A stretch of DNA of 32,000 nucleotides from Candidatus Methanoperedens sp. (GCA_041494705.1 JBGQBI010000001.1:360001-392000); one strand, 5' to 3'. Positions 2,794-25,009 are shown, counted from the first letter of the stretch. The notes: generated by a model from the letters alone, not told the origin. Numbers and translations: made by a program.

Positions 2794-4290
2794 ATGGCTG
2801 CTTTTATTTCATTGATGATTGCAATTCCCTTAATCGGAGCCATCATCACATTTTTGACAAGAACCCGTGAACAGGCGCGCCTGGTAGCGCTTCTGGCTTC
2901 AGGGATTTCACTTGTCATATCCCTGATAATATTTTCACGATTCGACAGTTCAATATCTACCATCCAGTTTGGCGAGTCATATCCATGGATTGCCAGTCTC
3001 GGAGTAAGCCTGAAATTCGGGCTTGACGGGATAGGCATGCCTCTTGTGCTCCTTTCGAACATAGTCATCCCTCTCACAGTTATATTCGCATGGGGTGAGA
3101 CTAAAGAAGCAAACCGGTTCTATGGTCTTATTCTTCTTGAGCTTGTAGGGGTACTTGGAGTTTTTACTTCCCTTGATTTCTTCGTGTTCTACATATTCTG
3201 GGAAATCGTCCTGATACCCATGTACTTCCTGATAAGCATTTGGGGAGGACCGCGAAAAGATTACGCTGCAATCAAATTCTTCATATACACGCATGTGGCA
3301 AGCCTTGTGATGCTGCTTGCGATATTTGCTCTCTATTTCAATGCATGGAATATCTCCGGAACCCCGAGCTTTGATATGTTTTACCTTTTGAAAAATTACT
3401 CCGTAATCCAATCACCGCTGCTTAAGGATGCAATATTCCTGGCGCTGTTGTTCGGTTTTATTGTTAAGATGCCAGCAGTGCCATTCCATACATGGCTTCC
3501 GGACGCACACGTGGAAGCGCCCACAGCTGGCAGCGTCATACTTGCAGCCTTACTGCTCAAGATGGGGGGCTATGGCCTTTTCAGGGTAATCCTTCCCCTT
3601 CTTCCGTATTCCGGTTCCCCTGCTAAATTAATAACATTGATGGCAATAATCGGCGTAGTGAGCATCCTGTACGGGACATTCCTCGCCCTTGCCCAGCGCG
3701 ACCTTAAGAAAATGGTGGCGTACTCAAGCATAAGCCACATGGGGTACGTCATGCTTGGCGCGGCAGCCCTCGTTCCGCTTTCGGTAAGCGGTGCGATGTA
3801 CCAGCAGTTCTCGCACGGGCTCATTACATGCGTGTTGTTCATGTCGTGCGGTGTAATCCAGCATTCCGCAGGCACCAGGATTATCGGCGACCTTGGCGGA
3901 ATTGCAAAATACATGCCAAAACTCACGTTCCTGATGCTTGCCGGCTTCCTTGCCTCGCTTGGGCTTCCGGGAATGAGCGGCTTCATAGCTGAATTCCTTG
4001 TACTTGCCAATTCGTATTTCACGCTGCCCACATTCGTGATACTCGCACTCTTTGGCATTGTGTTCACAGCGGGTTATCACCTCTGGGCTATGCAGCGAGC
4101 GGTATTCGGGACATACAATGAAAAACTGGGGCATATCCATGACGGCGCGAACTATGAGATGGCTTCCATGGGCATACTGATACTGCTCATAATATTCTTC
4201 GGTCTTAATCCAAACCCGGTTCTTAATATGATGACAACGAACGCCGAGCAACTATTGAAATTTGTCGCGCTAAGAGGAGTGATAACATGA
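2794..4290 (+). CDS. nuoM: Complex-I-type dehydrogenase subunit M (NuoM/FpoM)
   Basis: 498 aa. Motifs are FVFYIFWEIVLIPMYFLI, VKMPAVPFHTWLPDAHVEAPTAGSVILAALLLKMGGYG and AYSSISHMGYV. The start abuts the nuoL stop. Confidence 0.95.
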   Translation: MAAFISLMIAIPLIGAIITFLTRTREQARLVALLASGISLVISLIIFSRFDSSISTIQFGESYPWIASLGVSLKFGLDGIGMPLVLLSNIVIPLTVIFAWGETKEANRFYGLILLELVGVLGVFTSLDFFVFYIFWEIVLIPMYFLISIWGGPRKDYAAIKFFIYTHVASLVMLLAIFALYFNAWNISGTPSFDMFYLLKNYSVIQSPLLKDAIFLALLFGFIVKMPAVPFHTWLPDAHVEAPTAGSVILAALLLKMGGYGLFRVILPLLPYSGSPAKLITLMAIIGVVSILYGTFLALAQRDLKKMVAYSSISHMGYVMLGAAALVPLSVSGAMYQQFSHGLITCVLFMSCGVIQHSAGTRIIGDLGGIAKYMPKLTFLMLAGFLASLGLPGMSGFIAEFLVLANSYFTLPTFVILALFGIVFTAGYHLWAMQRAVFGTYNEKLGHIHDGANYEMASMGILILLIIFFGLNPNPVLNMMTTNAEQLLKFVALRGVIT

Positions 4291-5762
4291 ATTATAATTT
4301 ACTGGCTCCGGAAATCCTGCTGACATTACTGGCTTTACTGATTGTCATCTTGGGTCTTTTAATGAGAGACGTTTCCAAGAATATGCTTGGATATATTAGC
4401 GCTGCAGGTCTCCTGGCTTCTATCGTATATGTCCTTGGAAATGGAATGAACGAAGTAGCAAGTTTCTTCTACAATTCCCTGACCATCGACCCGCTATCAC
4501 AGATATTCAAATTGATATTCTTAATAGTTTCATTGATAGTAGTTATTGCCTCTATCGAATATTTCAGGGATAATCGCAGTCAAGATGAGTATTATGCCCT
4601 GCTTCTCCTCGCTACGGTCGGGATGATGGTAGTAGCATCGGCAAATGACCTGGTTGCATTGTTTGTCGGCTTTGAACTTGCCAGCATGTCCACGTACGTA
4701 TTAGCAGGTTTTGAGAAAAAGAACCCCCTGTCCCTTGAGGCTGCATTAAAATATTTCATCATAGGTTCGCTCTCCTCGGCATTGATGCTGTTTGGCATGT
4801 CGCTTGTGTACGGCATAACAGGTTCAACGAATATTCCTGCAATCATTGAGTTCTTTAAATCCAATCCTATGATAGCAACGAGTTCGCTTGATGTAGTCGC
4901 CATGATATTCCTTGTTGCCGGATTCGGATTCAAGATGGCGCTTGTCCCGTTCCACATGTGGGCGCCCGATACATACGAAGGTTCGCCGGGCGTTGTTTCA
5001 TCTCTTCTTGCAGCCGGCTCAAAAAAGATGGGATTCGTTGCCGCATTCAGGGTTCTCGTACTTGCCCTTGTTGCGATACGCATTGATATCCAGATGACGT
5101 TTGCAATTCTTGCAATAATCACCATGACCTACGGCAACATCGTTGCGATATCCCAGCACAGCATAAAAAGGATGCTGGCTTATTCATCCATAGCGCAGGC
5201 CGGGTACATTTCCCTGGCATTTGTGGTCACCACCCAGATGTCAATCGCAGGCGGCATACTACTGGCTCTTGGTCATGCACTGATGAAAGGCGGTGCGTTC
5301 CTTGCAGTTGCACTGGTAGGATATATGGTGCTGTCTGATAACCGGAATGCAAAAAACACTGACGACCTCGGGAACTTTGCAGGGCTTGGAAAACGTGCCC
5401 CGATAACAGCATTCTCGTTGCTTGTATTCTTTTTGGCCCTGGCAGGTATCCCGCCCTCAGCCGGATTCGTGGGGAAGTTTGTGCTTTTCTATTCAATCAC
5501 TATTGAAGCAATCAACCAGGCAAGCAGCTGGCTGCTAATCGTTGTGATTATCGCCATTTTAAACAGCGCCCTCTCCATTTATTACTATGCCCGTGTGATA
5601 AAATACATGTACGTCCTGCCTCCGAATGGAGAGAAAATAAAAGAGCCTGCGCCGTATGTTGTGGCTATCCTGCTTGCAGTGATAGGGACAATCGGCATAG
5701 GATTGTATCCTGAACCCTTTATCCAGATGGCAATGAATGCTGCAAAAGTATTAGGAGTGTGA
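4287..5762 (+). CDS. nuoN: Complex-I-type dehydrogenase subunit N (NuoN/FpoN)
   Basis: 491 aa. Motifs are FKMALVPFHMWAPDTYEGSPGVVSSLLA and AYSSIAQAGYI. The start overlaps the nuoM stop as ATGA. Confidence 0.95.
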   Translation: MNYNLLAPEILLTLLALLIVILGLLMRDVSKNMLGYISAAGLLASIVYVLGNGMNEVASFFYNSLTIDPLSQIFKLIFLIVSLIVVIASIEYFRDNRSQDEYYALLLLATVGMMVVASANDLVALFVGFELASMSTYVLAGFEKKNPLSLEAALKYFIIGSLSSALMLFGMSLVYGITGSTNIPAIIEFFKSNPMIATSSLDVVAMIFLVAGFGFKMALVPFHMWAPDTYEGSPGVVSSLLAAGSKKMGFVAAFRVLVLALVAIRIDIQMTFAILAIITMTYGNIVAISQHSIKRMLAYSSIAQAGYISLAFVVTTQMSIAGGILLALGHALMKGGAFLAVALVGYMVLSDNRNAKNTDDLGNFAGLGKRAPITAFSLLVFFLALAGIPPSAGFVGKFVLFYSITIEAINQASSWLLIVVIIAILNSALSIYYYARVIKYMYVLPPNGEKIKEPAPYVVAILLAVIGTIGIGLYPEPFIQMAMNAAKVLGV

Positions 5763-6242: not shown

Positions 6243-6557
6243 ATGACAAGTAATGTAGTACAGGTAAGAATGCCATCTGTAATACTAAAGAATGTCGAAG
6301 ACCTCGTTAAAAAAGGCTTTTACAAAAACAAGAGCGAAGTAATCATTGATGCCGTGCGTCATTTCGTGGGCATAAGGCAAACAGAGAGCGACGTAGCGCA
6401 GTACATAAGGGAAGAACTGCGGGGGAAGCATGTAAAGCGCGGTTACTCAGAAAAAGAACTCGATGCCTTATGGGAGAAAATCAGGCGCGGAAAAGAGTGG
6501 AAGGAGCGTTTCGGAATAAGCGCTGAAAGCGTCATGAAAGAACTCAGGGGAAGATAA
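6243..6557 (+). CDS. Ribbon-helix-helix (CopG/Arc/MetJ-like) antitoxin
   Basis: The N-terminus VQVRMPSVILKNVEDLVKKGFYKNKSEVIIDAVRHF follows the strand-helix-helix pattern. The stop overlaps the start of the downstream PIN gene by 1 nt. Confidence 0.7.
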   Translation: MTSNVVQVRMPSVILKNVEDLVKKGFYKNKSEVIIDAVRHFVGIRQTESDVAQYIREELRGKHVKRGYSEKELDALWEKIRRGKEWKERFGISAESVMKELRGR

Positions 6558-7036
6558 TGATTTTCATCGATACGGATATTTTTGTGATTGAGAAGCTTTT
6601 TAAAGACGATGATAGATACAGCATCGCAAAAGAGTTTTTAAATGGTGATTTAAAGGATAAATGCACCTCAATCTACAATTTGTTTGAGCTTCTCGGCATT
6701 GCTTCTTTTAATCTGAATACATCCGATTTGAAAAAATTGCTTAAAGGATTCCCTGAAGTATATGACATAAAAATACTATTTCCCTCCACAGCATACGAAT
6801 CCACGGATGCCTTTGTAGAGCAGTTATTCGATAAAACATTTTCAAAAATTAGCCTGAAAATGAATTTTATGGATGCTCTGATACTGAATGTGGCTGAGGA
6901 GCATAATTGTTCCAAATTTGTGACATATAATGTGAAACATTTTGAAGGGCGGACAGATATCCCTGTAATGACTCCTGACGGGATATTAACCAGGAAAAAG
7001 ACGGAAGCTGATAAACAGGAAACTCATCATCATTAA
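6557..7036 (+). CDS. vapC: PIN-domain (VapC-like) ribonuclease toxin
   Basis: IFIDTDIF supplies the first acidic residue, LFELLG the conserved E, and MDALILNVAEE...TYNVKHF the distal acidic residues. Size is 159 aa and it is coupled to an upstream RHH gene. Confidence 0.7.
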   Translation: MIFIDTDIFVIEKLFKDDDRYSIAKEFLNGDLKDKCTSIYNLFELLGIASFNLNTSDLKKLLKGFPEVYDIKILFPSTAYESTDAFVEQLFDKTFSKISLKMNFMDALILNVAEEHNCSKFVTYNVKHFEGRTDIPVMTPDGILTRKKTEADKQETHHH

Positions 7037-7126: not shown

Positions 7127-7154
7127 TTCACACCCTGATTTATATTTGTGTGAA
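7127..7154 (+). promoter_or_regulatory. Putative promoter of the HEAT-CheC gene: TTCACAC-N5-TTTATATTT-GTGTGAA
   Basis: The TATA box (7139-7147) is flanked by a TTCACAC box (7127-7133) and its inverted copy (7148-7154). It lies about 50 nt upstream of the ATG at 7200. Confidence 0.5.
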
Positions 7155-7199: not shown

Positions 7200-9290
7200 A
7201 TGAATGTTTACTCCCCGGAAAGAGGGATTGATTTGCCTTTAGACCATACCGATTTAAAAGAATTGAAAAAACGCGGGGATATTGAGGGGCTGCTGGGTAT
7301 CCTTGATACCGGCGACGTTAAGGAGTGCAGGGATGCGATATGCATTCTGGGCGAGCTTCGGAACAAGAAAGCTATCCGCCCCTTGATCATATTACTTGAG
7401 ACCGATGATGTCCAGATTCGCGCAAATGCAGCATGGGCTCTTGGCGAAATCGGGAATGTAAAGTCCGTGCTTCCACTGATCGCCCTTTTAAATGACCCGA
7501 GTGATAATGTTCGGATACATGCGGCATGGTCGCTTGGAAGGATAGGTGACAAACGGGCTGTTCCCGGGCTTATGGCTGTTTTAAAAAACGGTTCCACAGA
7601 TTTGAGAAAGCATGCAAGGGAAGCAATAGAGAGAATAGAATCGAACGGGAATGGCAACAGGTATGCTTATGAAAATGATGAGACCGATTTTTCTGAAAAA
7701 CGGGTTGATATCCCGCTCGTAACACTGGATATCCCATCTGATTTATTTAAATGCGAGTATTTATCACGCGTGGAAAACGGGGAAACAAAAACCGATTATG
7801 GCAATACAATCCAGTTCTCAAACGATTTGATGATAACGGATACGGAGGATTCAAACGGAACCGGTGAAAATACAAGAAAGATCGTTCTGGGCCTGAAAAA
7901 TGAATTTAATGGATTGGTTTCAGTCGATATTATTTTAAAATATAATGAAAACAATGGCTCTGACACGCAGACGAATTCGATATGGCTGCAAATGGAAAAT
8001 TTGAGAAAAAATAATCCAGCCGGCAGAAGTGCACCCGCAGGAGAACAGGAATGGGAGAAGGAGGAACAAACAGGAGCAATCAAAAGGAGAACACCGGGCA
8101 ATGGCGCAAAAAAAGTTCAATTAAAACCTTTGAGGAAACACAGACCTGCCGGATATGACCTGTCAGGCGAAGTGGCCGAAGATGAGACCAGGGCAGGAGA
8201 ATTGCCTTCTTTTGATTATGATTTTGATTACCCTGAAGAGAATACTGCAAAGAAAAAAGAAATTGTGAGACTTGAAAAGAGGTCTCATAAAAAGCCTGAA
8301 TCTGAGGAACCTGAATTAGAACCGGAAGCTGTTTCTATTAAAGAGAGCGTCAAATCCGAGAAAATAATACATGAGCCTGAAGTAAAGGCGAAAGTTGCCA
8401 GGCCGGAAACCGAACAGGTTAAAGAATCCGTCAAACCCGAGAAAAAATCACCTGAACCGGAAATTAAAGCGAAAGTTGCCAAACCCGAAATAGAAATGGT
8501 TAAAGAAACTATTAAACCTGAGAAAAAATTACCTGAACCTGAAGTAAAAGCCAGAGTCACTGAACCAGAAGTTAAAACCACTGTCATAAAACCGGAAGTT
8601 GAAGCCACAGAGACCGTTAAACCCATGAAAGCAGAACCTCATGCCCCACATGCAAAACCAGAGCCTGCCGCACCACTCAAAAAAGACCAGAATATCGATT
8701 CGGCTGTCAGGCTTTTAAGCGATATAGGGATGTCGGGAATGACAAACGCAGCGTCGACTGTCACCCAGTTATCTGGAGAGGAAGCCGAATCCAGCCATTC
8801 CCAGCTGCGCACCCTCCCGATTGAACAGATGCACGATGAAATAATCAGCCTTGGCGATTCGATAGTAATGATTGGAATCGAACTTCATGGAAAGGGCCCA
8901 ACCGGTGAAGTGAGAGGAGAGATGCAGTTGTATATATCAAGTGAAAATGCTCTGGATATCGCAAACGAACTTCTCTGCAATCCTCCGGACGCTGCATGCA
9001 AGGAGTTCACCGAGGATATAATTTCCACGTTAAAGGAAACAGCAAATATCTTTGGCGGGCAGTATATCAGCGCGGTATCTGAATATATCGAAGTTCCCTT
9101 ATTGCTTAAAGCCCCGACCTTCAAGACCGGCTCATCTTCAAAGATTGCAGAAGCCGCTATGAAAGAGATTGCCGGAAAAGTCGAATTCGCGCTTGCAACC
9201 AACCTGGCCCTGGGAATAAATAAAACCGGGAGGTTGATTATGCTGGTTGACCCGAAGTCGTTTGATATTATAATACAGAAACTGTTCTAA
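7200..9290 (+). CDS. HEAT_PBS-repeat protein fused through a long low-complexity linker to a CheC/CheX-like (CheY-P phosphatase family) domain
   Basis: The N-terminus has repeated ..AAWALGEIGNVKSVLPLIALLNDPSDNVRIHAAWSLGRIGDKRAVPGLMAVL.. units (PBS-lyase HEAT). The C-terminal ~190 aa contain S-TLK-E-TA-N-(22 aa)-P at nt 9024-9116, an exact match to the CheC-family consensus D/S-X3-E-X2-N-X22-P. I took the first ATG (7200) rather than the TTG at 7146. Confidence 0.75.
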   Translation: MNVYSPERGIDLPLDHTDLKELKKRGDIEGLLGILDTGDVKECRDAICILGELRNKKAIRPLIILLETDDVQIRANAAWALGEIGNVKSVLPLIALLNDPSDNVRIHAAWSLGRIGDKRAVPGLMAVLKNGSTDLRKHAREAIERIESNGNGNRYAYENDETDFSEKRVDIPLVTLDIPSDLFKCEYLSRVENGETKTDYGNTIQFSNDLMITDTEDSNGTGENTRKIVLGLKNEFNGLVSVDIILKYNENNGSDTQTNSIWLQMENLRKNNPAGRSAPAGEQEWEKEEQTGAIKRRTPGNGAKKVQLKPLRKHRPAGYDLSGEVAEDETRAGELPSFDYDFDYPEENTAKKKEIVRLEKRSHKKPESEEPELEPEAVSIKESVKSEKIIHEPEVKAKVARPETEQVKESVKPEKKSPEPEIKAKVAKPEIEMVKETIKPEKKLPEPEVKARVTEPEVKTTVIKPEVEATETVKPMKAEPHAPHAKPEPAAPLKKDQNIDSAVRLLSDIGMSGMTNAASTVTQLSGEEAESSHSQLRTLPIEQMHDEIISLGDSIVMIGIELHGKGPTGEVRGEMQLYISSENALDIANELLCNPPDAACKEFTEDIISTLKETANIFGGQYISAVSEYIEVPLLLKAPTFKTGSSSKIAEAAMKEIAGKVEFALATNLALGINKTGRLIMLVDPKSFDIIIQKLF
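8343..8585 (+). repeat. Three diverged in-frame tandem copies of an 81-nt (27-aa) unit inside the HEAT-CheC linker
   Basis: Units are at 8343-8423, 8424-8504 and 8505-8585. They encode ESVKSEKIIHEPEVKAKVARPETEQVK / ESVKPEKKSPEPEIKAKVAKPEIEMVK / ETIKPEKKLPEPEVKARVTEPEVKTTV. Confidence 0.85.
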
Positions 9291-9294
9291 ACAA

Positions 9295-10383
9295 TTAAGA
9301 AATATATACTTCGGTGCTGCGGACTACTTTTTCTACATCCCTTTCAAGCTTTGACAGCATTGTTTTATCAAGCTTCTTTCCTTTTAGCTGCTCAATGAAC
9401 ATAAGCGATTTCGTATGGTCATCCGGGAGGAGTTTCCATGTGGGACGTTCCACGTAATAATCTATCCCGTTCGCATAGGCTATCATTTTTTCGCAGACTT
9501 CCTCGCTTATCCATCCTATGTCAATATAATATTCAAGGACTTCTGTGAGGTTATTCCTTCCCACCTTTTCAAGTAAAAATTCTATCCAGTTAAGAAGTAT
9601 AATCGACGTTTCAGCTTTATTATCCAGATATTGCAGTTTTACATCCCCACCGGCTCTTGTTGCAGGAACTGCGCTCTCAACCTGTTCATGTATCCGGGAT
9701 GACGGCTCCGTAACCATGACTGGTTGCAGGGATTTTTGATCGATTAAGAGTTTAATCTCTTCCAATACCCGTTCGGAAACATTTTTTACCAGGACATCCT
9801 GATTCAATGCTGTTGAATTAATCACTTCGGTCAATGCCTGCAAACTGCCCTCGAGAGCTTTAAATTTAATATCATATTCTTCTTTTATATTCGGGGGAAG
9901 TTCCGGCGCTTTCTGGCTTAAGGCATCGATTTTTTTCTCCATCTGTTCGAGCTTTTCATTCGGGACATTTTCCTTGTCGCCAACAAACGGGTTTACAGTG
10001 CTGGATACCACTTCATATAATGATAATAATTCAAGAAGGCTTTCATCTATTTTATCCAATCTTTCTTTAAATTCATCCACCCGGTTTTTTGTCGCTGAGA
10101 CAGAACTCTCCACTTTGCTTATCTTTGTATCATACTCCTTGATGGATTCGGTCGTGGCGCTGATTTGTTCGGTTTTGGATTTCACTATCTCTTCAATCTT
10201 CTGGGTAATTTCTTCCTGCGCTTTTTTAACCTGTTCGGACAAATCAGGCATTGCTATTGATGGCGTACCTCCGGCTATTGGTACTCCTGCGCCGGGAGTC
10301 TTTTTTATCCTTTCGATTTTTTTAATAAGGGACTCTTCCGGCATCTTTAATTTTTTAAACTTTTCTGAAATATCCTCAAACAT
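9295..10383 (-). CDS. arlCDE: Archaellum accessory protein, ArlC (FlaC) - ArlD/E (FlaD/E) fusion
   Basis: A coiled-coil N-terminal half ends in LLELLSLYEVVSSTVNPF, the FlaC signature (..lYE.vs..iNPF). The C-terminal LLNWIEFLLEKVGRNNLTEVLEYYIDIGWISEEVCEKMIAYANGI matches the FlaD/FlaE domain signature. Confidence 0.8.
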   Translation of the reverse strand: MFEDISEKFKKLKMPEESLIKKIERIKKTPGAGVPIAGGTPSIAMPDLSEQVKKAQEEITQKIEEIVKSKTEQISATTESIKEYDTKISKVESSVSATKNRVDEFKERLDKIDESLLELLSLYEVVSSTVNPFVGDKENVPNEKLEQMEKKIDALSQKAPELPPNIKEEYDIKFKALEGSLQALTEVINSTALNQDVLVKNVSERVLEEIKLLIDQKSLQPVMVTEPSSRIHEQVESAVPATRAGGDVKLQYLDNKAETSIILLNWIEFLLEKVGRNNLTEVLEYYIDIGWISEEVCEKMIAYANGIDYYVERPTWKLLPDDHTKSLMFIEQLKGKKLDKTMLSKLERDVEKVVRSTEVYIS

Positions 10384-10483
10384 CGCCTTTATCCTTCATA
10401 TTATTTTTTTATAAATATGTTATTCTAAGTTATTACATTTTTGTTAATTTAAATTTATTGTATGTACGTGTTATTAAGCATAT

Positions 10484-10517
10484 TTCACACAAACTTCACA
10501 ACTGCGTTTATATAAAA
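10484..10517 (+). promoter_or_regulatory. Putative promoter with doubled box: TTCACAC-N4-TTCACAA-N5-TTTATATAAAA (upstream of the KaiC/ArlH-like gene)
   Basis: Boxes are at 10484-10490 and 10495-10501, with TATA at 10507-10517. GAGGT lies 6 nt before the ATG at 10549. Confidence 0.55.
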
Positions 10518-10548
10518 CATCAATGATACTTCATTGCAGAGGTCGTTT

Positions 10549-11304
10549 ATGAGAGTAAAAACAGGAATAGAAGGTTTAGATGAACTGATCGAAGGAGGTT
10601 TACCCAAGGATAGGCAGTACTTGATTAGCGGCTCCCCGGGCAGTGGGAAATCTACATTCGGAGTGCAATTTTTGGCTGGCGGGGCGCTTGCCGGGGAAGC
10701 CGGTGCATACGTTGTATTATCCGAAAGCGTAGATACTATTATCGAAGACATGTCCCGGTACAATCTGCACATCGAAGAACTGGTCAACAAGAAAAAACTG
10801 TTTTTTTTAGATCTCGGGCCGACGACCCAATACGGGGAATACGAAGAAGTTTCTTCGTTGATAACGCCAAATTATGAGCAGCGTGAAGCCGAATCTCCCG
10901 ATAACACTCCCCCCACGCCATATTCAGTGTTCAAGAATGTTGAGGCAGTGGTAAAGCAGCACAATATCAAGAGACTGGTAATAGACTCATTATCTGCCAT
11001 CAGGTTCACTTCATCGCAGGCGGCGCAGGAAGAGAAATCCATAAGCAGGTTCATCAGGAATCTTAAAACCCTTGGATGCACCACTTTACTTTTATCCGAA
11101 CTTACCAAGCCTGATGCTTATACCATTGAACAGTTCGCATCCCACGGCGTGATATTTCTCCATAATTTCCTGGATAACCAGAAAGGAATGGTGAGAGCGT
11201 TGCAGATAATTAAGATGCGGGGAACAAAACACGACTGTGAAATGCGCTGTATCGAATTCACGAATAAGGGCTTAATTGTCCAGAAACCGCTGAAAAAATA
11301 TTAA
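10549..11304 (+). CDS. Single-domain KaiC-like RecA-superfamily ATPase (possible ArlH/FlaH-type)
   Basis: TGIEGLDELIEGGLPKDRQYLISGSPGSGKSTFGVQFL gives the KaiC-type N-terminus with Walker A. KRLVIDSLSAI is Walker B-like. Size is about 250 aa and it is divergent from arlCDE. I chose the ATG at 10549 over the TTG at 10534. Confidence 0.75.
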   Translation: MRVKTGIEGLDELIEGGLPKDRQYLISGSPGSGKSTFGVQFLAGGALAGEAGAYVVLSESVDTIIEDMSRYNLHIEELVNKKKLFFLDLGPTTQYGEYEEVSSLITPNYEQREAESPDNTPPTPYSVFKNVEAVVKQHNIKRLVIDSLSAIRFTSSQAAQEEKSISRFIRNLKTLGCTTLLLSELTKPDAYTIEQFASHGVIFLHNFLDNQKGMVRALQIIKMRGTKHDCEMRCIEFTNKGLIVQKPLKKY

Positions 11305-11416
11305 GGGGTTTTGAGCTATTACAGGTAAACAGGCTGATAAGGAGCGGCTCATAAAAAAAATTTCCGAGCTGGGATTTGAAGTCGGATACAAGAATCACTC
11401 AGAAATTGGCTGGGTA

Positions 11417-11746
11417 TTGAGAGAATATAATGCCCTTATTAAAGAAGCCCTGGATCTTGGGATTAAATCGCCTGAAACTTATTATTATGAAGGAAAAATA
11501 AAAGGAAAAGCGGGCAGGGACAGGGGGATAGTGGGGCATAAAGTCCAGGAAGAAAAAGAGGAGATAGTTTCGGGCAATGTACCGGCCAAGGATAATGAGG
11601 ATGCAATCAAAACAAAAAAAGAAACCAAATCATATAAGTTACTTAAAAAACCCGATTTTAACTGTATTCCTCATCTGGTTAAAAAAATCAGCATGATAGA
11701 ATTCCCGCAATTTCTCGGGGGATTCAAGCTTTTCAACAGGAAATAG
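11417..11746 (+). CDS. Hypothetical K/E-rich small protein with uncertain start
   Basis: The open frame runs from 11315 with no ATG or GTG before the TTG at 11417. I recognised no domain and the C-terminal half is low-complexity. It may be spurious or may use an unusual start. Confidence 0.3.
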   Translation: MREYNALIKEALDLGIKSPETYYYEGKIKGKAGRDRGIVGHKVQEEKEEIVSGNVPAKDNEDAIKTKKETKSYKLLKKPDFNCIPHLVKKISMIEFPQFLGGFKLFNRK

Positions 11747-11778
11747 TTCACACTTTCTTCACAAATCGATTTATAAAG
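11747..11778 (+). promoter_or_regulatory. Putative promoter with doubled box: TTCACAC-N4-TTCACAA-N5-TTTATAAAG (upstream of MCP1)
   Basis: Boxes are at 11747-11753 and 11758-11764, with TATA at 11770-11778. Spacing is identical to the 10484 and 14626 sites. Confidence 0.55.
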
Positions 11779-11887
11779 AAGAGATTTTCATCTTGCCAAT
11801 TACGGTGAAAAAGCAGTTTTGCTGCTTATGAACAATAGAGAAAGTCCGAAAAACGAAAATGTATTAAAATGGAAAACGGAGGATTTT

Positions 11888-14062
11888 ATGGTAAGTATTA
11901 AAGATATGTCTCTAAGCAAGAAGCTTCTGGGCGGATTCGGCCTTGTCAGCATCTTGCTTATAATAGTGGCTGTGATAAGCATCACTTCCCTCAGTTCCCT
12001 TGACAGCGAGACAAAATCGTTGTTGGGAAATGAAGTAACATTGAAAGAAAAAGCTCTTAATATAGATGTAAAAATGCTTGAGGCAAGACGCTCCGAGAAA
12101 GACTTCCTGATGCGGCTTGATCCGAGCTATGTTGATCTGGTGACAAAAGCTACTGCCGAAGTCAAGCAAAATGCGACAGACATAAAGAAGCTTGATGTCC
12201 CGCAGGAAAGAAAGGATATGGCAGATAAAATAGTGCTGTTGATTAATCAATATGAAACCAAGTTCCTGGAGGTCGTCCAGCTCTATAAGACAAAAGGACT
12301 GGATGAGAATTCAGGGCTACAGGGTGAACTCAGGACTGCGGTGCATGGCGTTGAAGATGACATTAATAAACAGAAGGATAGCGTGCTCCTGGCAGATATG
12401 CTGCAATTGAGAAGGAATGAGAAGGATTACATGTTGCGGGGAGACATTGTGTATCAGAAGACATTACACGATAACGAAAAGATACTCATGAAGGACCTTG
12501 CAGCAAGCAAGATGCCGCAGAATGTTAAAGATGATATTAATAACAAGCTTAAAACCTATACCGCATCGTTTGATAAGTTGGTGGATGTAGACGGCCAGAT
12601 TACAACCAAAATAAATGAATACAGGGATGTTGTCCACCAGATTGAGCCGCTTGTCGCTGAATTTTCTGCCGATGCCGATACGGATAAAGCAGCAAAAATC
12701 GCCGAAAGCGATAAGATGAATTCAACGGCTAAAGCATCTGTAATAATAATATCTATTATAGCAGTGGTAACAGGTCTCGGTATCGGGGTATATATCTCCC
12801 GGGCAATCACCAAACCTGTGGACAGCATGCTCCAGGCATCCAATAAAGTCGCAGCTGGCGACCTTACAGTCCAGCTCACAAATGATTCAAAGGATGAGGT
12901 CGGGCAGCTTTCCATGGCCATATCGACCATGACCGAGAGCTTAAGAGGCGTTCTTTCCAAAGTCCAGGGCTCGGCACTGAGAGTAGCCTCAACAGCCCAG
13001 GAACTCTCAGCATCAAGCGAAGAGATGAAAGCCTCCACCGACCAGATATCCAGCACCACGCAGGATATTGCTTCCGGAGTGAGCCAGCAGGCATCGAAGA
13101 TGGTGGAAATAACGAGGACAGTAAAAGAGATGGCAGACAGCGTACAGCAGGTTGCAGTAAATTCCCAGAAAGCAGCAGAAAGCGCTACTTCAGCCAGCAA
13201 TACCGCCCAGGAAGTGGGCAAGATGTCCAATGATGTGGCGAGCAAAATATCGGAAATCAGGACGACCGTGGATAACTCAGCGTCTGTAATAAAAGAGCTT
13301 GACGGCAGGTCGCAAAAGATTGGTGAAATAATAGGTGTGATAACAAATATTGCAGACCAGACAAACCTCCTTGCATTGAACGCAGCTATCGAAGCTGCAA
13401 GAGCAGGAGAGCACGGCAGGGGTTTTGCTGTAGTCGCTGATGAAGTCAGGAAGCTTGCCGAGGAATCAAGAAATGCCGCAAACCAGATAACTTCACTGAT
13501 AAAAGAAGTCCAGCTGGGAACAAAACAGGCAGTTGATAGCATGGAACAGGGCACCAGGACCGTAGGCGAGGGTGCCAAGACAATCGAGGATGCAGTATCT
13601 GCTATCAATAAGATTGTCACCGCTGCCGGGGAAGTCGCCACCATGGTTCAGGAAATCGCGGCAGCGGCGCAGGAACAGTCTGCCTCGGTTGAAGAGGTTG
13701 CTGCTTCGGTTGAAGATGTATCTGCAATAAGTGAAGAATCCGCTTCAGGCACAGAGGAAGTTTCGGCAGCAGCAGAAGAGCAGGCTGCTTCAATGGACCA
13801 GATGGTGAACGCCGCCCAGGAACTTGCTAAACTGTCAAACGAACTACAGGCAGAAGTTTCGAAATTCAATCTGGGAGAGGCGGTATCCCGGGTCTTTAAA
13901 CAGGCAGAACAAATTAAGCATGAACCTGTAAAGCAGAAAGAGGCAGCGGCGAAGCAAGTGCATACAGAGACGCATGACCAGAAATCCGGAACCAGACAAA
14001 ATGATTCAATGAAAACAGGGAAAAAGACGGTATCTCATGCAGATGAAACAAAGCCGGAATAG
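11888..14062 (+). CDS. Methyl-accepting chemotaxis protein with a large helical extracellular sensor domain, HAMP and signalling domain
   Basis: Start is the ATG at 11888, preceded by GGAGG. TM1 is [22 protein letters not shown]. The ~280-aa ectodomain has two RR(S/N)EKD(F/Y)(L/M)(M/L)R modules. TM2 is [21 protein letters not shown], followed by HAMP. The conserved hairpin tip is [38 protein letters not shown]. Confidence 0.9.
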
Positions 14063-14071
14063 GAGATAAAA

Positions 14072-14599
14072 ATGGCAGAGAAAACTCAAGACCCAAAGGC
14101 ACAACCATCAGCGAACGACGAGCTCCAGCTCGTCGTTTTCATGATAGGCAGCGAAGAATTCGGTGTTGAGATAACCAACGTGCAGGAGATTATCCGCATG
14201 ACCAGCATCACCAGGATTCCCCAGGCGCCGAATTACGTCAGGGGAATAATCAACCTCAGGGGCCGGATTATAGTTGTGCTCAACCTGAATGTGATAATGG
14301 GCATGGAAAGCAAAGAGCAGGACGAGAATACGCGCATTGTGGTTGCGAACATCGGCGAGACTGTGATGGGTTTCATTGTTGACTCCGTAAGTGAAGTCAT
14401 CCGCCTCCCCCAGAAGAACGTTGAGCCTGCACCGGCTGTTATCGCTAACAAGATAGGCACGGAATATGTCCGGGGAGTTGGCAAGATGGATAACAGGCTT
14501 CTGATTCTCCTTGATCTTGATAAGTTACTCAGCGCAAACGAACTGCACAGTGTTCACACTATTTCCCAAGAAGCCGCAGAGGCAGCAGTAACAACCTGA
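14072..14599 (+). CDS. cheW: Chemotaxis coupling protein CheW
   Basis: 175 aa. LQLVVFMIGSEEFGVEITNVQEIIRMTSITRIPQAPNYVRGIINLRGRIIVVLNL is a canonical CheW core. It starts 9 nt after the MCP stop. Confidence 0.9.
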   Translation: MAEKTQDPKAQPSANDELQLVVFMIGSEEFGVEITNVQEIIRMTSITRIPQAPNYVRGIINLRGRIIVVLNLNVIMGMESKEQDENTRIVVANIGETVMGFIVDSVSEVIRLPQKNVEPAPAVIANKIGTEYVRGVGKMDNRLLILLDLDKLLSANELHSVHTISQEAAEAAVTT

Positions 14600-14613
14600 A
14601 AGACTGCCTCCTC

Positions 14614-14638
14614 TTTTTTTCTTTTTTCACACCTTTTT
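14614..14638 (+). terminator. Oligo-T tracts (T7, T6, T5) downstream of cheW-1; archaeal-type terminator candidate
   Basis: CTCTTTTTTTCTTTTTTCACACCTTTTT lies directly after the TGA at 14597-14599. It overlaps the next promoter's upstream box. Confidence 0.4.
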
Positions 14639-14656
14639 CACAAATTAGTTTATTAG
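14626..14656 (+). promoter_or_regulatory. Putative promoter with doubled box: TTCACAC-N4-TTCACAA-N5-TTTATTAG (upstream of MCP2)
   Basis: Boxes are at 14626-14632 and 14637-14643, with a TATA-like element at 14649-14656. AAGGAG lies 6 nt before the ATG at 14711. Confidence 0.5.
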
Positions 14657-14710: not shown

Positions 14711-16243
14711 ATGGGATTAATAGATATTATAGATAAAGCAAATGAATTGACAATCGGCAGGTTCAATATTGGTATTAAAATCGCTTATAGTTTCATCGTG
14801 GTTGATGCGCTGATGCTAATTATAGCATATATGGGTTTATACGGTGACAGTGTCAGCGCTTTTATTGACCCTAAACAGGCAATCATCCTTGTTATTTTTT
14901 TCGTAATATTTTCATCCATACTAATGTGTCTCGGATTGACCCGTTCTATCATGAAGCCGCTGAATAGTTTTATCAATGCCGCTGACAGGATAGCTGAGGG
15001 GGATTTGACAACAGAAGTGGATGTCTCGTCAAAGGACGAACTCGGACAGCTTGCAGCATATTTCCAGAAAATGACCGGAAATCTGCGGCATTTAACAGGC
15101 AAAGTCCAGGACGTCTCATTAAGAGTTGCGAATACAGCCCAGGAACTATCGGCATCAAGCGAGGAAATGAAAGCTTCATCAGACCAGATATCAAGCACAA
15201 CGCAGGATATTTCCAATGGGGTGAGCCAGCAGGCTTCCAAGATGGCTGAAGTAAGCCGCGCCATGAAAGAGATGGCTGAGAGCGTCCAGCAGGTTGCTCA
15301 AAACTCCCAGAAAGCGGCCGAAGGCGCGACATCTGCCAGCGCAACCGCCCAGCAGGTGGGCAGAATGTCAGGCGATGTGGCGCAAAAGATGGCAGAAATC
15401 CAGGGAAGTGTGGATAATTCAGCGACAGTTATAAAACAGCTTGACGGCAAATCACAGCAAATAGGCGAAATTATCAGCGTGATAACCACTATCGCAGACC
15501 AGACAAACCTTCTTGCCCTGAACGCTGCCATAGAAGCCGCAAGAGCAGGAGAGCACGGCAGGGGTTTTGCGGTAGTTGCAGATGAAGTGCGCAAACTTGC
15601 CGAGGAATCAAGAAATGCCGCGAACCAGATTACCTTGTTGATAAAAGAGATACAGCAGGGCACAAAGCAGGCTGTAACGACAATGGAACTGGGCACAAAA
15701 ACTGTTGGTGAAGGCGCCAGGACCATAGAATCCACGGTATCGGCAATCAACCAGATAGTAAAGGCGGCAGAAGATGTGGCTACGATGATCCAGGAAATAG
15801 CTGCAGCCGCGGAAGAACAGTCAGCATCGGTTGAAGAGGTAACAGCTTCGGTTGAGGACGTTTCATCAATAAGCCAGGAATCGGCTGCAGGCACACAGGA
15901 AACATCAGCGGCGGCACAAGAGCAGGCAGCGTCAATGGACATGCTTGTGAATGCAGCCCAGGAACTTGCAAGATTATCAAGCGAGTTACAGGTTGAAGTG
16001 GGTAAGTTCAAACTCGGCGATGCTGTAACAACAGATTTAAAACAGGTTCATGAACCGGTAAGGATTGAGCAAAAACCTGAGATTGAACACCGGACCGGAA
16101 AGGAAGCGGAACATAAAGCTATTCATGAAAAAATTAAGAAACACAAGCCAGCGGAAAAAGGTAAGGCTGCAAAGAAGGATGAAAAAGCCAGGGCTAAGAA
16201 CAGTTCCTCAGGTTCAAACCCTGATGAAGACATGACAAAATAG
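14711..16243 (+). CDS. Methyl-accepting chemotaxis protein (transducer) with two TM helices and almost no extracellular loop
   Basis: TM1 [23 protein letters not shown], a ~12-aa loop, and TM2 [21 protein letters not shown] are followed by HAMP. The signalling domain is near-identical to MCP1 ([38 protein letters not shown]). Confidence 0.9.
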
Positions 16244-16250
16244 GAACGCC

Positions 16251-16772
16251 ATGGCAGAAAAACAACCACGGGACGCAAAAACCAAATCGGGCGATGAACT
16301 CCAGCTTGTCGTCTTTAACATAGGCAAAGAAGAGTTCGGCGTGGAGATTATGAGAGTCCAGGAAATCATCCGCATGACCAGTATCACGGGAATTCCCCAG
16401 GCTCCGGCTTATATCAGGGGAATAATCAACCTTCGCGGACGGATTATTGTTGTGCTCAACCTGAATGTGATAATGGGCATGGAAACAAAAGAACTGGACG
16501 AGAATACCCGTATAATAGTGGCAAATATAGATGAAACCGTAATGGGATTCATTGTTGATTCCGTGAGCGAGGTTATCCGGCTTCCTGAAAATAATGTAGA
16601 GCCGGCGCCGGCAGTTATCGCAAGCAAGATAGGCACTGAATATGTGCGGGGCGTTGGCAAGATGGAGGACAGGCTTTTGATTCTCCTTGATCTTGACAAG
16701 ATGCTTGGCAGAAACCAGTTGCTCAGCGTCCAAAAAATATCAACACAGGCGTCAGGCGTTGAGGCTGCATAA
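16251..16772 (+). CDS. cheW: Chemotaxis coupling protein CheW (second copy)
   Basis: 173 aa. By hand count about 125 of 146 aligned residues are identical to the first CheW. Confidence 0.9.
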   Translation: MAEKQPRDAKTKSGDELQLVVFNIGKEEFGVEIMRVQEIIRMTSITGIPQAPAYIRGIINLRGRIIVVLNLNVIMGMETKELDENTRIIVANIDETVMGFIVDSVSEVIRLPENNVEPAPAVIASKIGTEYVRGVGKMEDRLLILLDLDKMLGRNQLLSVQKISTQASGVEAA

Positions 16773-24785: not shown

Positions 24786-24857
24786 AGCCCCGGGAGGGAA
24801 TTGAACCCTCGACCTCGTCCTTACCAAGGACGCGCTATACCTCTAAGCCACCGAGGC
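24786..24857 (-). tRNA. tRNA-Thr (anticodon GGU)
   Basis: Hand-folded from the minus-strand sequence GCCTCGGTGGCTTAGAGGTATAGCGCGTCCTTGGTAAGGACGAGGTCGAGGGTTCAATTCCCTCCCGGGGCT. The acceptor stem is GCCTCGG/CCGGGGC, the anticodon stem CGTCC/GGACG with loop TTGGTAA, and the T arm GAGGG-TTCAATT-CCCTC. CCA is not encoded and there is no intron. Confidence 0.85.
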
Positions 24858-24888
24858 GCTATTGATTTTTGCCAGGATATATTTTAAG

Positions 24889-24963
24889 CGGGCCCGGAGG
24901 GATTCGAACCCTCGACATCCGGGTTAGAAGCCCGGCGCTATATCCAAGCTAAGCCACGAGCCC
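24889..24963 (-). tRNA. tRNA-Arg (anticodon UCU)
   Basis: Hand-folded from the minus-strand sequence GGGCTCGTGGCTTAGCTTGGATATAGCGCCGGGCTTCTAACCCGGATGTCGAGGGTTCGAATCCCTCCGGGCCCG. The acceptor stem is GGGCTCG/CGGGCCC, the anticodon stem CCGGG/CCCGG with loop CTTCTAA, and the T arm GAGGG-TTCGAAT-CCCTC. CCA is not encoded. Confidence 0.85.
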
Positions 24964-24989
24964 AGCGCGAAACTCCAAGATGTTTTGTT

Positions 24990-25009
24990 TATTTAAAAAG
25001 CTTTGTGAA
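24990..25009 (-). promoter_or_regulatory. Putative tRNA-Arg promoter: TTCACAA-N5-TTTAAATA (minus strand)
   Basis: The TATA box ends about 27 nt upstream of the mature tRNA 5' end (24963). A single TTCACAA box sits at the same N5 distance seen in the taxis-gene promoters. Confidence 0.55.

Follow-up and report, generated by a model that had tools for sequence, protein, structure and literature searches.

A doubled TTCACA box in fixed register with the TATA box at archaellum and chemotaxis promoters of Methanoperedenaceae

Are the archaellum, chemotaxis and receptor genes of methane-oxidizing archaea, which lie in several operons, tied together by a common promoter signal? The question is raised by a 32,000-nucleotide stretch of Candidatus Methanoperedens sp. 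(GCA_041494705.1 JBGQBI010000001.1:360001-392000), referred to as the window, in which a first-pass annotation had noticed that three intergenic regions, upstream of a KaiC-like gene and of two MCP-CheW operons, carry two TTCACA boxes in the same register with the TATA box. From its sequence, its position and the genes behind it, this doubled box is most likely a shared cis-regulatory element of the archaellum-chemotaxis regulon in Methanoperedenaceae (ANME-2d).

The detailed transcriptional control of archaeal motility is known for few regulators (EarA, the Arn network and CsmR), and the coupling of chemotaxis and receptor genes to archaellum genes is essentially unexplored. In Methanoperedenaceae, the archaellum genes are known to be regulated, with induction both in planktonic cells and in cells on electrodes (PMC13046784), and a recent review notes only that such regulation exists (PMC13046784). 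Archaellum expression in Methanoperedens has been considered in relation to the planktonic/biofilm life cycle and to extracellular electron transfer (PMC13046784), and a handle on its regulation would therefore be useful. We found in the literature no description of this motif, nor any promoter analysis of Methanoperedens motility genes.

The doubled box and the genes behind it

The three doubled sites lie on the + strand, and the coordinates and sequences first given for them are all correct. In front of the KaiC-like gene, the distal box (TTCACAC, 10484-10490) is followed by the spacer AAAC, the proximal box (TTCACAA, 10495-10501), the five nucleotides CTGCG and the TATA box TTTATATA (10507-10514); according to the archaeal rule that the TATA box is centered at -26/-27 from the transcription start site (TSS) (PMC5512572), transcription is predicted to start at about 10537, and the ATG is at 10549. 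In front of MCP1-CheW, the distal TTCACAC (11747-11753) begins 1 base past the stop codon of orf109, and is followed by TTTC, the proximal TTCACAA (11758-11764), ATCGA and the TATA box TTTATAAA (11770-11777), which would place the TSS at about 11800. In front of MCP2-CheW, the distal TTCACAC (14626-14632) lies just past an oligo-T run behind CheW1 and precedes CTTT, the proximal TTCACAA (14637-14643), ATTAG and the TATA-like element TTTATTAG (14649-14656), for a probable TSS at about 14679.

A search of both strands of the window for TTCACA-N5-TTCACA with at most one mismatch returns three matches, which are the three doubled sites, so that the doubled form is confined there to the KaiC-like gene and the two MCP-CheW operons, as had been claimed. 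Shuffled versions of the window give 0.16 matches on average, and none of 100 shuffles reaches three. The pattern TTCACAM-N5-TTTAW occurs five times (0.04 expected), at the three proximal boxes, at the promoter of a HEAT-CheC gene and at that of a tRNA-Arg gene. The bare 7-mer is not enriched in the window (14 matches for 8.6 expected); the signal therefore lies in the arrangement of the boxes. An Rfam search at the box sites found no known RNA family.

The pattern TTCACAM-N4-TTCACAM-N5-TTTA was then scanned over the contigs of one genome per species (individual loci are numbered with the prefix L). At least 119 loci match; among the matches listed, 27 loci with 34 sites belong to Methanoperedens or Methanoperedenaceae, and about 85 are bacterial. 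By our own calculation, the pattern is expected about 4e-4 times by chance in a 3.5-Mb genome (equal base frequencies), and about 70 chance matches are expected across the whole species-genome collection, so that the bacterial matches are background. At the archaeal loci, the first open reading frame (ORF) begins 45-179 nt downstream of the distal box, and the genes behind the sites encode MCPs, KaiC-like proteins, archaellins, small membrane proteins, a 482-aa histidine kinase, a 344-349-aa protein, a 117-aa membrane protein and a regulator in which a receiver domain (REC) is fused to PadR. Relaxed scanning adds near-matches with variant first or last box letters or with a TATATAT-type TATA box; these precede the same gene families, and the distance from proximal box to TATA box is always 5 bp.

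A census made with a slightly relaxed pattern over the window and 32 loci comprises 48 sites, which stand ahead of genes for MCPs (14), archaellins (10), KaiC-like proteins (9), RHH348, a protein of the AF_0136_C type (5), a small membrane protein of about 155 aa (5) and the 117-aa membrane protein (2), and ahead of the REC-PadR regulator, the histidine kinase and the cheY operon (1 each). None of these 48 sites precedes a housekeeping gene, and the box always reads towards the downstream gene.

Six loci were fetched by protein and not by motif: L121, four loci seeded with homologues of RHH222, a paralogue of RHH348, and one seeded with an archaellin (L124, L125, L126, L127 and L150). All six have the doubled box, which is found ahead of arlB in 4/4 cases and ahead of the cheY operon in 2/2, and also ahead of KaiC-like, MCP, RHH348 and small membrane protein genes. 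The total comes to at least 50 promoters with the doubled box in the same TATA register, in more than 25 Methanoperedenaceae genomes; behind them are about ten recurring gene families, which are either motility/chemotaxis operons or a few recurring uncharacterized genes, the latter mostly inside the motility supercluster. The specificity for taxis genes and the fixed geometry, first noticed at three promoters, thus hold in related genomes, with the proximal box always 5 bp from a TATA-like element.

The arrangement is best seen in Ca. M. nitroreducens (L121), whose motility genes form one 20-kb supercluster, in the order HEAT-CheC, ArlC/D/E, KaiC-like, CheW, MCP, small membrane proteins, zinc-ribbon protein, RHH348, RHH222, REC210, two copies of arlB, arlF/G/H/I/J, cheY, cheB and cheA. 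Doubled boxes stand there ahead of the KaiC-like gene, the MCP gene, RHH348, arlB and cheY, and there is none ahead of ArlC/D/E, RHH222 or REC210. The ArlC/D/E promoter region of the window, described earlier as boxless, likewise has no box on either strand (10384-10470).

Conservation is restricted to the element. The box is kept at the promoters of the KaiC-like gene in eight loci (L024, L049, L086, L088, L093, L100, L121 and L125) while the flanks diverge, and it stands 5 bp upstream of the arlB TATA box in eight loci (L006, L033, L065, L095, L121, L126, L127 and L150); when the orthologous regions upstream of the KaiC-like and arlB genes are aligned, only the boxes and the TATA box are conserved, that is about 28 bp. 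The best 120 matches in a search for archaellin homologues are all from Methanoperedens. Loci encoding distant homologues of RHH222 and REC210 (L145-L149) lie outside motility contexts and have no canonical sites.

The unit is a pair of 7-bp direct repeats, TTCACAC (distal) and TTCACAA (proximal), with an 11-bp step from the start of one to that of the other and a 4-bp T-rich spacer in between; from the end of the proximal repeat to the TATA box there are exactly 5 bp. At positions that the search pattern leaves free, the seventh letter is C in 36/37 distal boxes and A in 34/37 proximal boxes. The spacer reads nTTT (positions 2-4 are T in 25-28 of the 37 sites), the five nucleotides before the TATA box read mTynR, i.e. 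(A/C)-T-(C/T)-n-(G/A), and a T follows TTTA in 36/37 sites, which makes the TATA box TTTAT(A)(T/A). The TCACA core is invariant in the boxes of motility promoters, protein-seeded loci included, and only extra copies far upstream are degenerate. The N5 distance to a TATA-like element is found at every site, including the sites that were found without that constraint.

Activation, repression or core-promoter recognition

The direct, non-palindromic 7-bp repeats, the spacing of one helical turn, the T-rich spacer and the fixed distance to the TATA box suggest tandem subunits that would sit on one face of the DNA and touch the basal factors. The first-pass annotation had likewise proposed a dimeric or tandem-binding transcription factor, for instance of the winged-helix kind. 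Relative to the predicted TSS, the boxes would lie at about -53 to -47 and -42 to -36, and the third to fifth boxes that are seen in the same 11-bp phase at some promoters (L095, L126, L037, L119) would fit cooperative binding on one helix face. The position directly upstream of the B recognition element (BRE) and of the TATA box is that where the archaeal activators EarA, TFB-RF1, Ptr2 and the ara-box factor act (PMC5512572, PMC10665913). The tandem layout, this position and a likeness to the pho box lead us to favor an activator site: with a probability of roughly 0.6, we infer that the doubled box couples all the motility and taxis operons through a regulon-specific factor bound beside BRE and TATA.

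In the mechanism that we propose, a sequence-specific factor would bind the repeats as tandem subunits on one helix face, and its promoter-proximal subunit, at the upstream edge of the BRE, would help or stabilize the binding of TFB and TBP. The dispersed operons would then be switched on together: arlB-J, cheY-B-A-R-C-D, many MCP-CheW pairs and the KaiC-like gene, as well as the histidine kinase and several small membrane proteins. The sites of TFB-RF1 (Pyrococcus), Ptr2 (M. jannaschii) and the ara-box factor (Sulfolobus) likewise abut BRE/TATA, and activation by these proteins is thought to compensate for poor recognition of the BRE or of the TATA box (PMC5512572). Unlike the Methanoperedens boxes, these sites are palindromic or of other forms and occur at one or few promoters.

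In the pho box, a 7-bp sequence is directly repeated after a 4-bp A/T-rich spacer, which gives an 11-bp period, and the distance to the core promoter is fixed; PhoB, a member of the OmpR family, binds this box head-to-tail on one helix face, contacts the basal machinery and defines a regulon. Repeat length, spacer, period and fixed core-promoter distance are the same in TTCACAC-nTTT-TTCACAA, but the likeness is architectural only, the basal machinery being sigma70 in one case and TBP/TFB in the other. No OmpR/PhoB-type winged-helix regulator was found near the boxed motility genes, and the only fusion of a receiver to a DNA-binding domain that was seen behind a box is the REC-PadR protein, at one locus. 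As for the extent of the regulon, the sigma-28 (FliA) promoter class offers a parallel, since one signature couples flagellin, che and MCP genes scattered over several operons. The Methanoperedens box likewise couples archaellin, che and MCP genes of several operons; the difference is that sigma-28 is an alternative sigma factor, whereas here a predicted factor site is added to a normal TATA promoter.

Some points weigh against an activator site. The promoter assignment rests on TATA-like elements and on the distance to start codons, and the site counts are those of the matches listed, hence minimum numbers that are not exhaustive for any single genome. The proximal box extends over the upstream edge of the BRE, where a repressor would fit equally well. 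Nor does the comparison of BREs show those of the box promoters to be weak: their positions read AAmTynR, where two other promoters of the window have GAAAGT and CAAAGCTT, and the control set, 18 promoters, is too small to give a BRE consensus.

The alternative that survives best is that the boxes are the operator of a repressor, which would occlude the BRE/TFB site and keep the motility genes off until a signal is received. We consider it unlikely, but there is something to be said for it. The proximal box reaches the upstream edge of the BRE, its last two A's being positions -7 and -6 from the TATA box, and motility is conditionally expressed (PMC13046784). The promoters of the HEAT-CheC gene also have an extra box where repressors typically act. 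In the window (7127-7154, +), a single box (TTCACAC, 7127-7133) is followed by CCTGA, the TATA box TTTATATT (7139-7146), a T and the inverted copy GTGTGAA (7148-7154), just as the first-pass annotation had described it, and all five HEAT-CheC promoters examined (window, L049, L086, L093 and L121) read TTCACAC-N5-TTTATAT-(T/A)-GTGTGAA. One RHH222 promoter (L125) shares this arrangement, in which two boxes flank the TATA box. The inverted box of HEAT-CheC lies between the TATA box and the predicted TSS, so a factor bound there would be expected to hinder initiation, and to dampen or invert the response. In Thermococcales, SurR and TrmBL1/Tgr act on a same motif as activators when it is upstream of BRE/TATA and as repressors when it is downstream; the HEAT-CheC variant could, by analogy, behave alike, although the motifs and the proteins are unrelated.

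What makes repression unlikely for the regulon as a whole is that, at 50 promoters at least, neither of the tandem boxes reaches into the TATA box; both are upstream of it, where the characterized archaeal activators bind, whereas archaeal repressors usually sit on the TATA box, on the TSS or further downstream (PMC5512572). Moreover, a distal box at about -50 is unnecessary for occlusion, and the fact that the boxes keep strict helical phase with the TATA box speaks for a contact between proteins.

That a homologue of EarA binds the boxes appears doubtful. EarA (arCOG03422) is a winged helix-turn-helix (wHTH) protein of about 110 aa whose gene stands beside an S-adenosylmethionine (SAM)-methyltransferase gene (PMC10665913). 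Its sites are four TACATA in Methanococcus maripaludis and one to three A(C/G)(C/G)TACA(T/C) in Thermococcales (PMC10665913, PMC5512572). Place and logic match, since these short direct repeats adjoin, on the upstream side, the BRE/TATA of the operon of the first archaellin gene, with a proposed role in TFB recruitment and, in Thermococcales, a fixed distance to the BRE, as for the Methanoperedens boxes (PMC10665913, PMC5512572). An ACA core is common to TACATA, A(C/G)(C/G)TACA(T/C) and TTCACA, and a wide distribution of EarA homologues in Euryarchaeota, haloarchaea excepted, has been reported (PMC10117864). However, nothing but this trinucleotide is common to the consensus sequences, which here are TTCACAC/TTCACAA with an invariant TCACA core, organized in a strict two-box unit with an 11-bp register, 5 bp from the TATA box. 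The Thermococcales motifs are reported only ahead of the first arlB gene, whereas here the whole regulon is marked, including che, MCP, KaiC-like, kinase, RHH348 and membrane protein genes. In addition, no pair of genes for a wHTH protein of about 110 aa (arCOG03422) and a SAM-methyltransferase is present within 7-10 kb of the arl/che clusters at six loci (L121, L124-L127, L150), and the slot upstream of arlB is held by RHH222 and REC210. The box resembles an EarA-type upstream site, but it departs from one in two defining respects, having another consensus and not being restricted to the first archaellin gene.

We think it very unlikely that the boxes are an extended core-promoter element, read by a specialized paralogue of TFB or TBP with no separate regulator. 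This would explain that the distance to the TATA box is absolutely fixed, that the proximal box overlaps the BRE position and that the regulon-wide use resembles promoter classes of the sigma-factor type. Yet TFB contacts the BRE about 6-10 bp upstream of the TATA box (PMC5512572), and the distal box (-23 to -17 from the TATA box) and the third to fifth phased boxes are out of its reach; besides, one box directly repeats the other, as would be expected if the same DNA-binding module were present twice.

There remains the caveat, raised by the first-pass annotation, that the TATA-proximal box could be a general promoter element, because a single TTCACAA-N5 box precedes a tRNA-Arg gene. This look-alike does exist (TTCACAA-AGCTT-TTTAAATA, 25009-24990, - strand) and it matches TTCACAM-N5-TTTAW. 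The tRNA sequence led to 17 related tRNA-Arg promoters, which have CACAAAGCTTTTTAAAT as their conserved stretch; position 2 of the would-be box is G in 13 of them and T in only 2. Since the look-alike does not persist as a box in these relatives, we rejected the tRNA-Arg promoter as a member of the regulon. None of the other promoters of the window has the box, nor has any of 18 control TATA promoters in related loci, and the caveat is largely removed. Apart from this single look-alike, the data contradict the idea, to which we give next to no weight, that the boxes lack regulon specificity and belong to promoters in general, or else to a dispersed repeat or a mobile element: other promoters are boxless, conservation is limited to about 28 bp between diverging flanks, the orientation to the downstream gene is constant and all the sites (at least 50) precede about ten gene families.

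As far as can be told from sequence, the doubled box is probably a regulator site adjacent to the archaeal core promoter, and it stands out by its regulon-wide use and its strict geometry.

Candidate binding proteins

The leading candidates for the factor are two AF_0136-like proteins that appear to have a ribbon-helix-helix (RHH)-like N-terminus, RHH222 and RHH348. They are paralogues (E = 1e-18), and both are encoded inside the motility supercluster. RHH222 and then REC210 are found upstream of arlB or cheY at every locus; RHH348 is near this pair, and the doubled box stands ahead of its gene in 5/5 genomes. The N-terminus of the two proteins is nearly invariant, (M)xRKN(V/I)S(I/L)...GN(L/F)SAAMR, and the AlphaFold2 monomer consists there of a coil (residues 1-9) and two helices (10-22 and 27-45), a sequence pattern and a secondary structure which suggest an RHH-like fold. 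Searches of Pfam, NCBIfam and PDB (by sequence or profile) and Foldseek gave no support for this fold.

The AF_0136-like family is small, with 86 representatives among 1.84 billion proteins (Pfam label AF_0136_C), and it is also found in ANME-2, Syntropharchaeia and Methanofastidiosia. Another of its branches is annotated as "hydrocarbon binding protein" (P0145). In other archaea, in the single proteins P0132 and P0141 (L145 194-1612), an RHH222-like/AF_0136_C module is followed by a C-terminal receiver domain, and this fusion links RHH222 with its neighbor REC210.

REC210 was rejected as a DNA binder: its AlphaFold2 model (pLDDT 88) comprises a receiver domain and a three-helix bundle, a part in which it is PorX-like, and no helix-turn-helix. 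In the REC210 family (e.g. L065 4763-5395), N-S or D-S replaces the acidic pair after strand 1 (ILIVNSEP) and the phospho-acceptor Asp is kept, so that it may be an atypical receiver or a pseudo-receiver. Among the proteins of the window, we also rejected orf109 and its 144/149-aa orthologues, which have no detectable DNA-binding domain, and orf140, orf209 and orf243, which are a lipoprotein-like protein, a membrane protein and a protein without assigned function, respectively.

The RHH222 promoters mostly lack TCACA boxes. They have instead two to four ATCAT/ATCAC repeats, direct and inverted, immediately past the TATA box (e.g. TTATCATTATCATAATAA), in L121 (9790-10000), L126 and L127 (6800-7000), L033, L048, L065, L006 and L124. 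These repeats look like an auto-operator, which would be distinct from the TCACA core but reminiscent of it. The omega repressor of pSM19035 binds, as RHH dimers, non-palindromic (A/T)ATCAC(A/T) heptads in direct or inverted arrays. Like the Methanoperedens boxes, these heptads are 7-bp non-palindromic units with a TCAC core, and the analogy would extend to the RHH-like N-terminus of the candidate factors; they differ in being contiguous, with a period of 7 bp and not 11, and in repressing bacterial promoters.

We tentatively suggest that the boxes are operators of the AF_0136-like family, and that RHH348/RHH222 and REC210 would form a split two-component regulator of a sigma-28-like regulon, acting through a pho-box-like tandem site and a contact with TFB; this is a possibility rather than the expected outcome.

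Under a single, sharply defined promoter signature, arlB, cheYBARCD, numerous MCP-CheW pairs and several unstudied genes would form one predicted regulon, family-wide in these methane-oxidizing archaea. The signature nominates a link to motility for the KaiC-like ATPase, the histidine kinase and the small membrane proteins, it indicates candidate regulators, and the 28-bp site is a usable probe for DNA-affinity purification.

Genes of the window and further observations

The window holds a HEAT-repeat + CheC/CheX fusion (7200-9290, +), whose ATG at 7200 agrees with the orthologues, and a gene for an ArlC/D/E-like protein (9295-10383, -) which is divergent from the gene of the KaiC-domain protein (10549-11304, +) and has no box in front. 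Behind the latter comes a small ORF of 109 aa, orf109 (11417-11746, +). MCP1 (HAMP + MCPsignal) and CheW1 together span 11819-14599 (+), with CheW1 at 14072-14599 (+), and the likely start of MCP1 is the ATG at 11889, behind GGAGG. MCP2 (14711-16243, +) and CheW2 (16251-16772, +) form the second pair. The window also encodes the F420H2 dehydrogenase subunits FpoL/M/N/O. A toxin-antitoxin-like RHH + PIN pair (6243-7036, +) is inserted between the fpo operon and the HEAT-CheC gene; in M. nitroreducens (L121), another gene is found upstream of HEAT-CheC in its place.

The gene labels of the first-pass annotation stand for HEAT-CheC/CheX, for the ArlC/D/E-like protein and for the two MCP-CheW pairs, and what was called "KaiC/ArlH-like" is a KaiC-like paralogue and not ArlH: the protein scores 168 bits with Pfam KaiC and only 45 bits with NCBIfam ArlH, for a cut-off of 215. 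In relatives, the true ArlH is encoded within the arl operon, separately from the KaiC-like gene beside ArlC/D/E (13732-14424 and 3927-4676, respectively, in L121). Behind the KaiC-like gene there is always a small conserved ORF, which is orf109 in the window and has 144-149 aa in relatives. The closest loci found are from Candidatus Methanoperedens, and the identity to their counterparts is 91-93% for the KaiC-like protein and about 90% for MCP1, which places the window in the Methanoperedenaceae.

The oligo-T run CCTCCTCTTTTTTTCTTTTTT (14600-14625, +), directly behind the stop codon of CheW1, is probably an archaeal terminator between the two MCP-CheW operons. The intergenic region between the ArlC/D/E and KaiC-like genes contains a second conserved element, GTACGTGTTATTAAG (10464-10478, +), 5 bp upstream of the distal box. 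It reads GT(T)ACnTGTTATTAA(G/A) in orthologues and is kept in L024, L049, L086, L088, L093 and L125; in the alignment of orthologous upstream regions, it is not conserved in L100 or L121. It could be the site of another factor or part of the divergent ArlC/D/E promoter.

A stretch AGAAG(C/T)A(A/C)GG(A/T)nnGGCGTA(A/T) is conserved about 45-65 nt past the arlB TATA box, in the predicted 5' leader of the first archaellin gene (L006, L033, L065, L095, L121, L126 and L127). In L126 and L127, which are ENA contigs, the archaellin, receiver and ArlI genes are in fragments, for which frameshifts introduced by long-read assembly are a more probable cause than pseudogene formation.

The promoter of the tRNA-Arg(UCU)-tRNA-Thr(GGU) unit, CACAAAGCTTTTTAAATAAACAAAACATCTTGGAG (window 24786-25009, -; L128-L144), is nearly invariant in 15/17 related metagenome contigs, and it can serve as a model of a strong Methanoperedens promoter when the local BRE is to be defined.

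Last, among the bacterial matches of the scan, uncultured gut Clostridia have TTCACAAAAAATTCACAAA ahead of a CIRCE-like TTAGCA...TGCTAA repeat. The layout is TTCACA(A/C)AAAATTCACAAA-N4-TTTTAGCA-N7-TTGACA-N-TGCTAA, that is a doubled TTCACA box and a CIRCE-like inverted repeat with an embedded -35 element, and it is found in L002, L008, L010, L014, L016, L020, L023, L025, L027 and about 20 more bacterial loci. This conserved architecture of bacterial promoters has no relation to the archaeal element.

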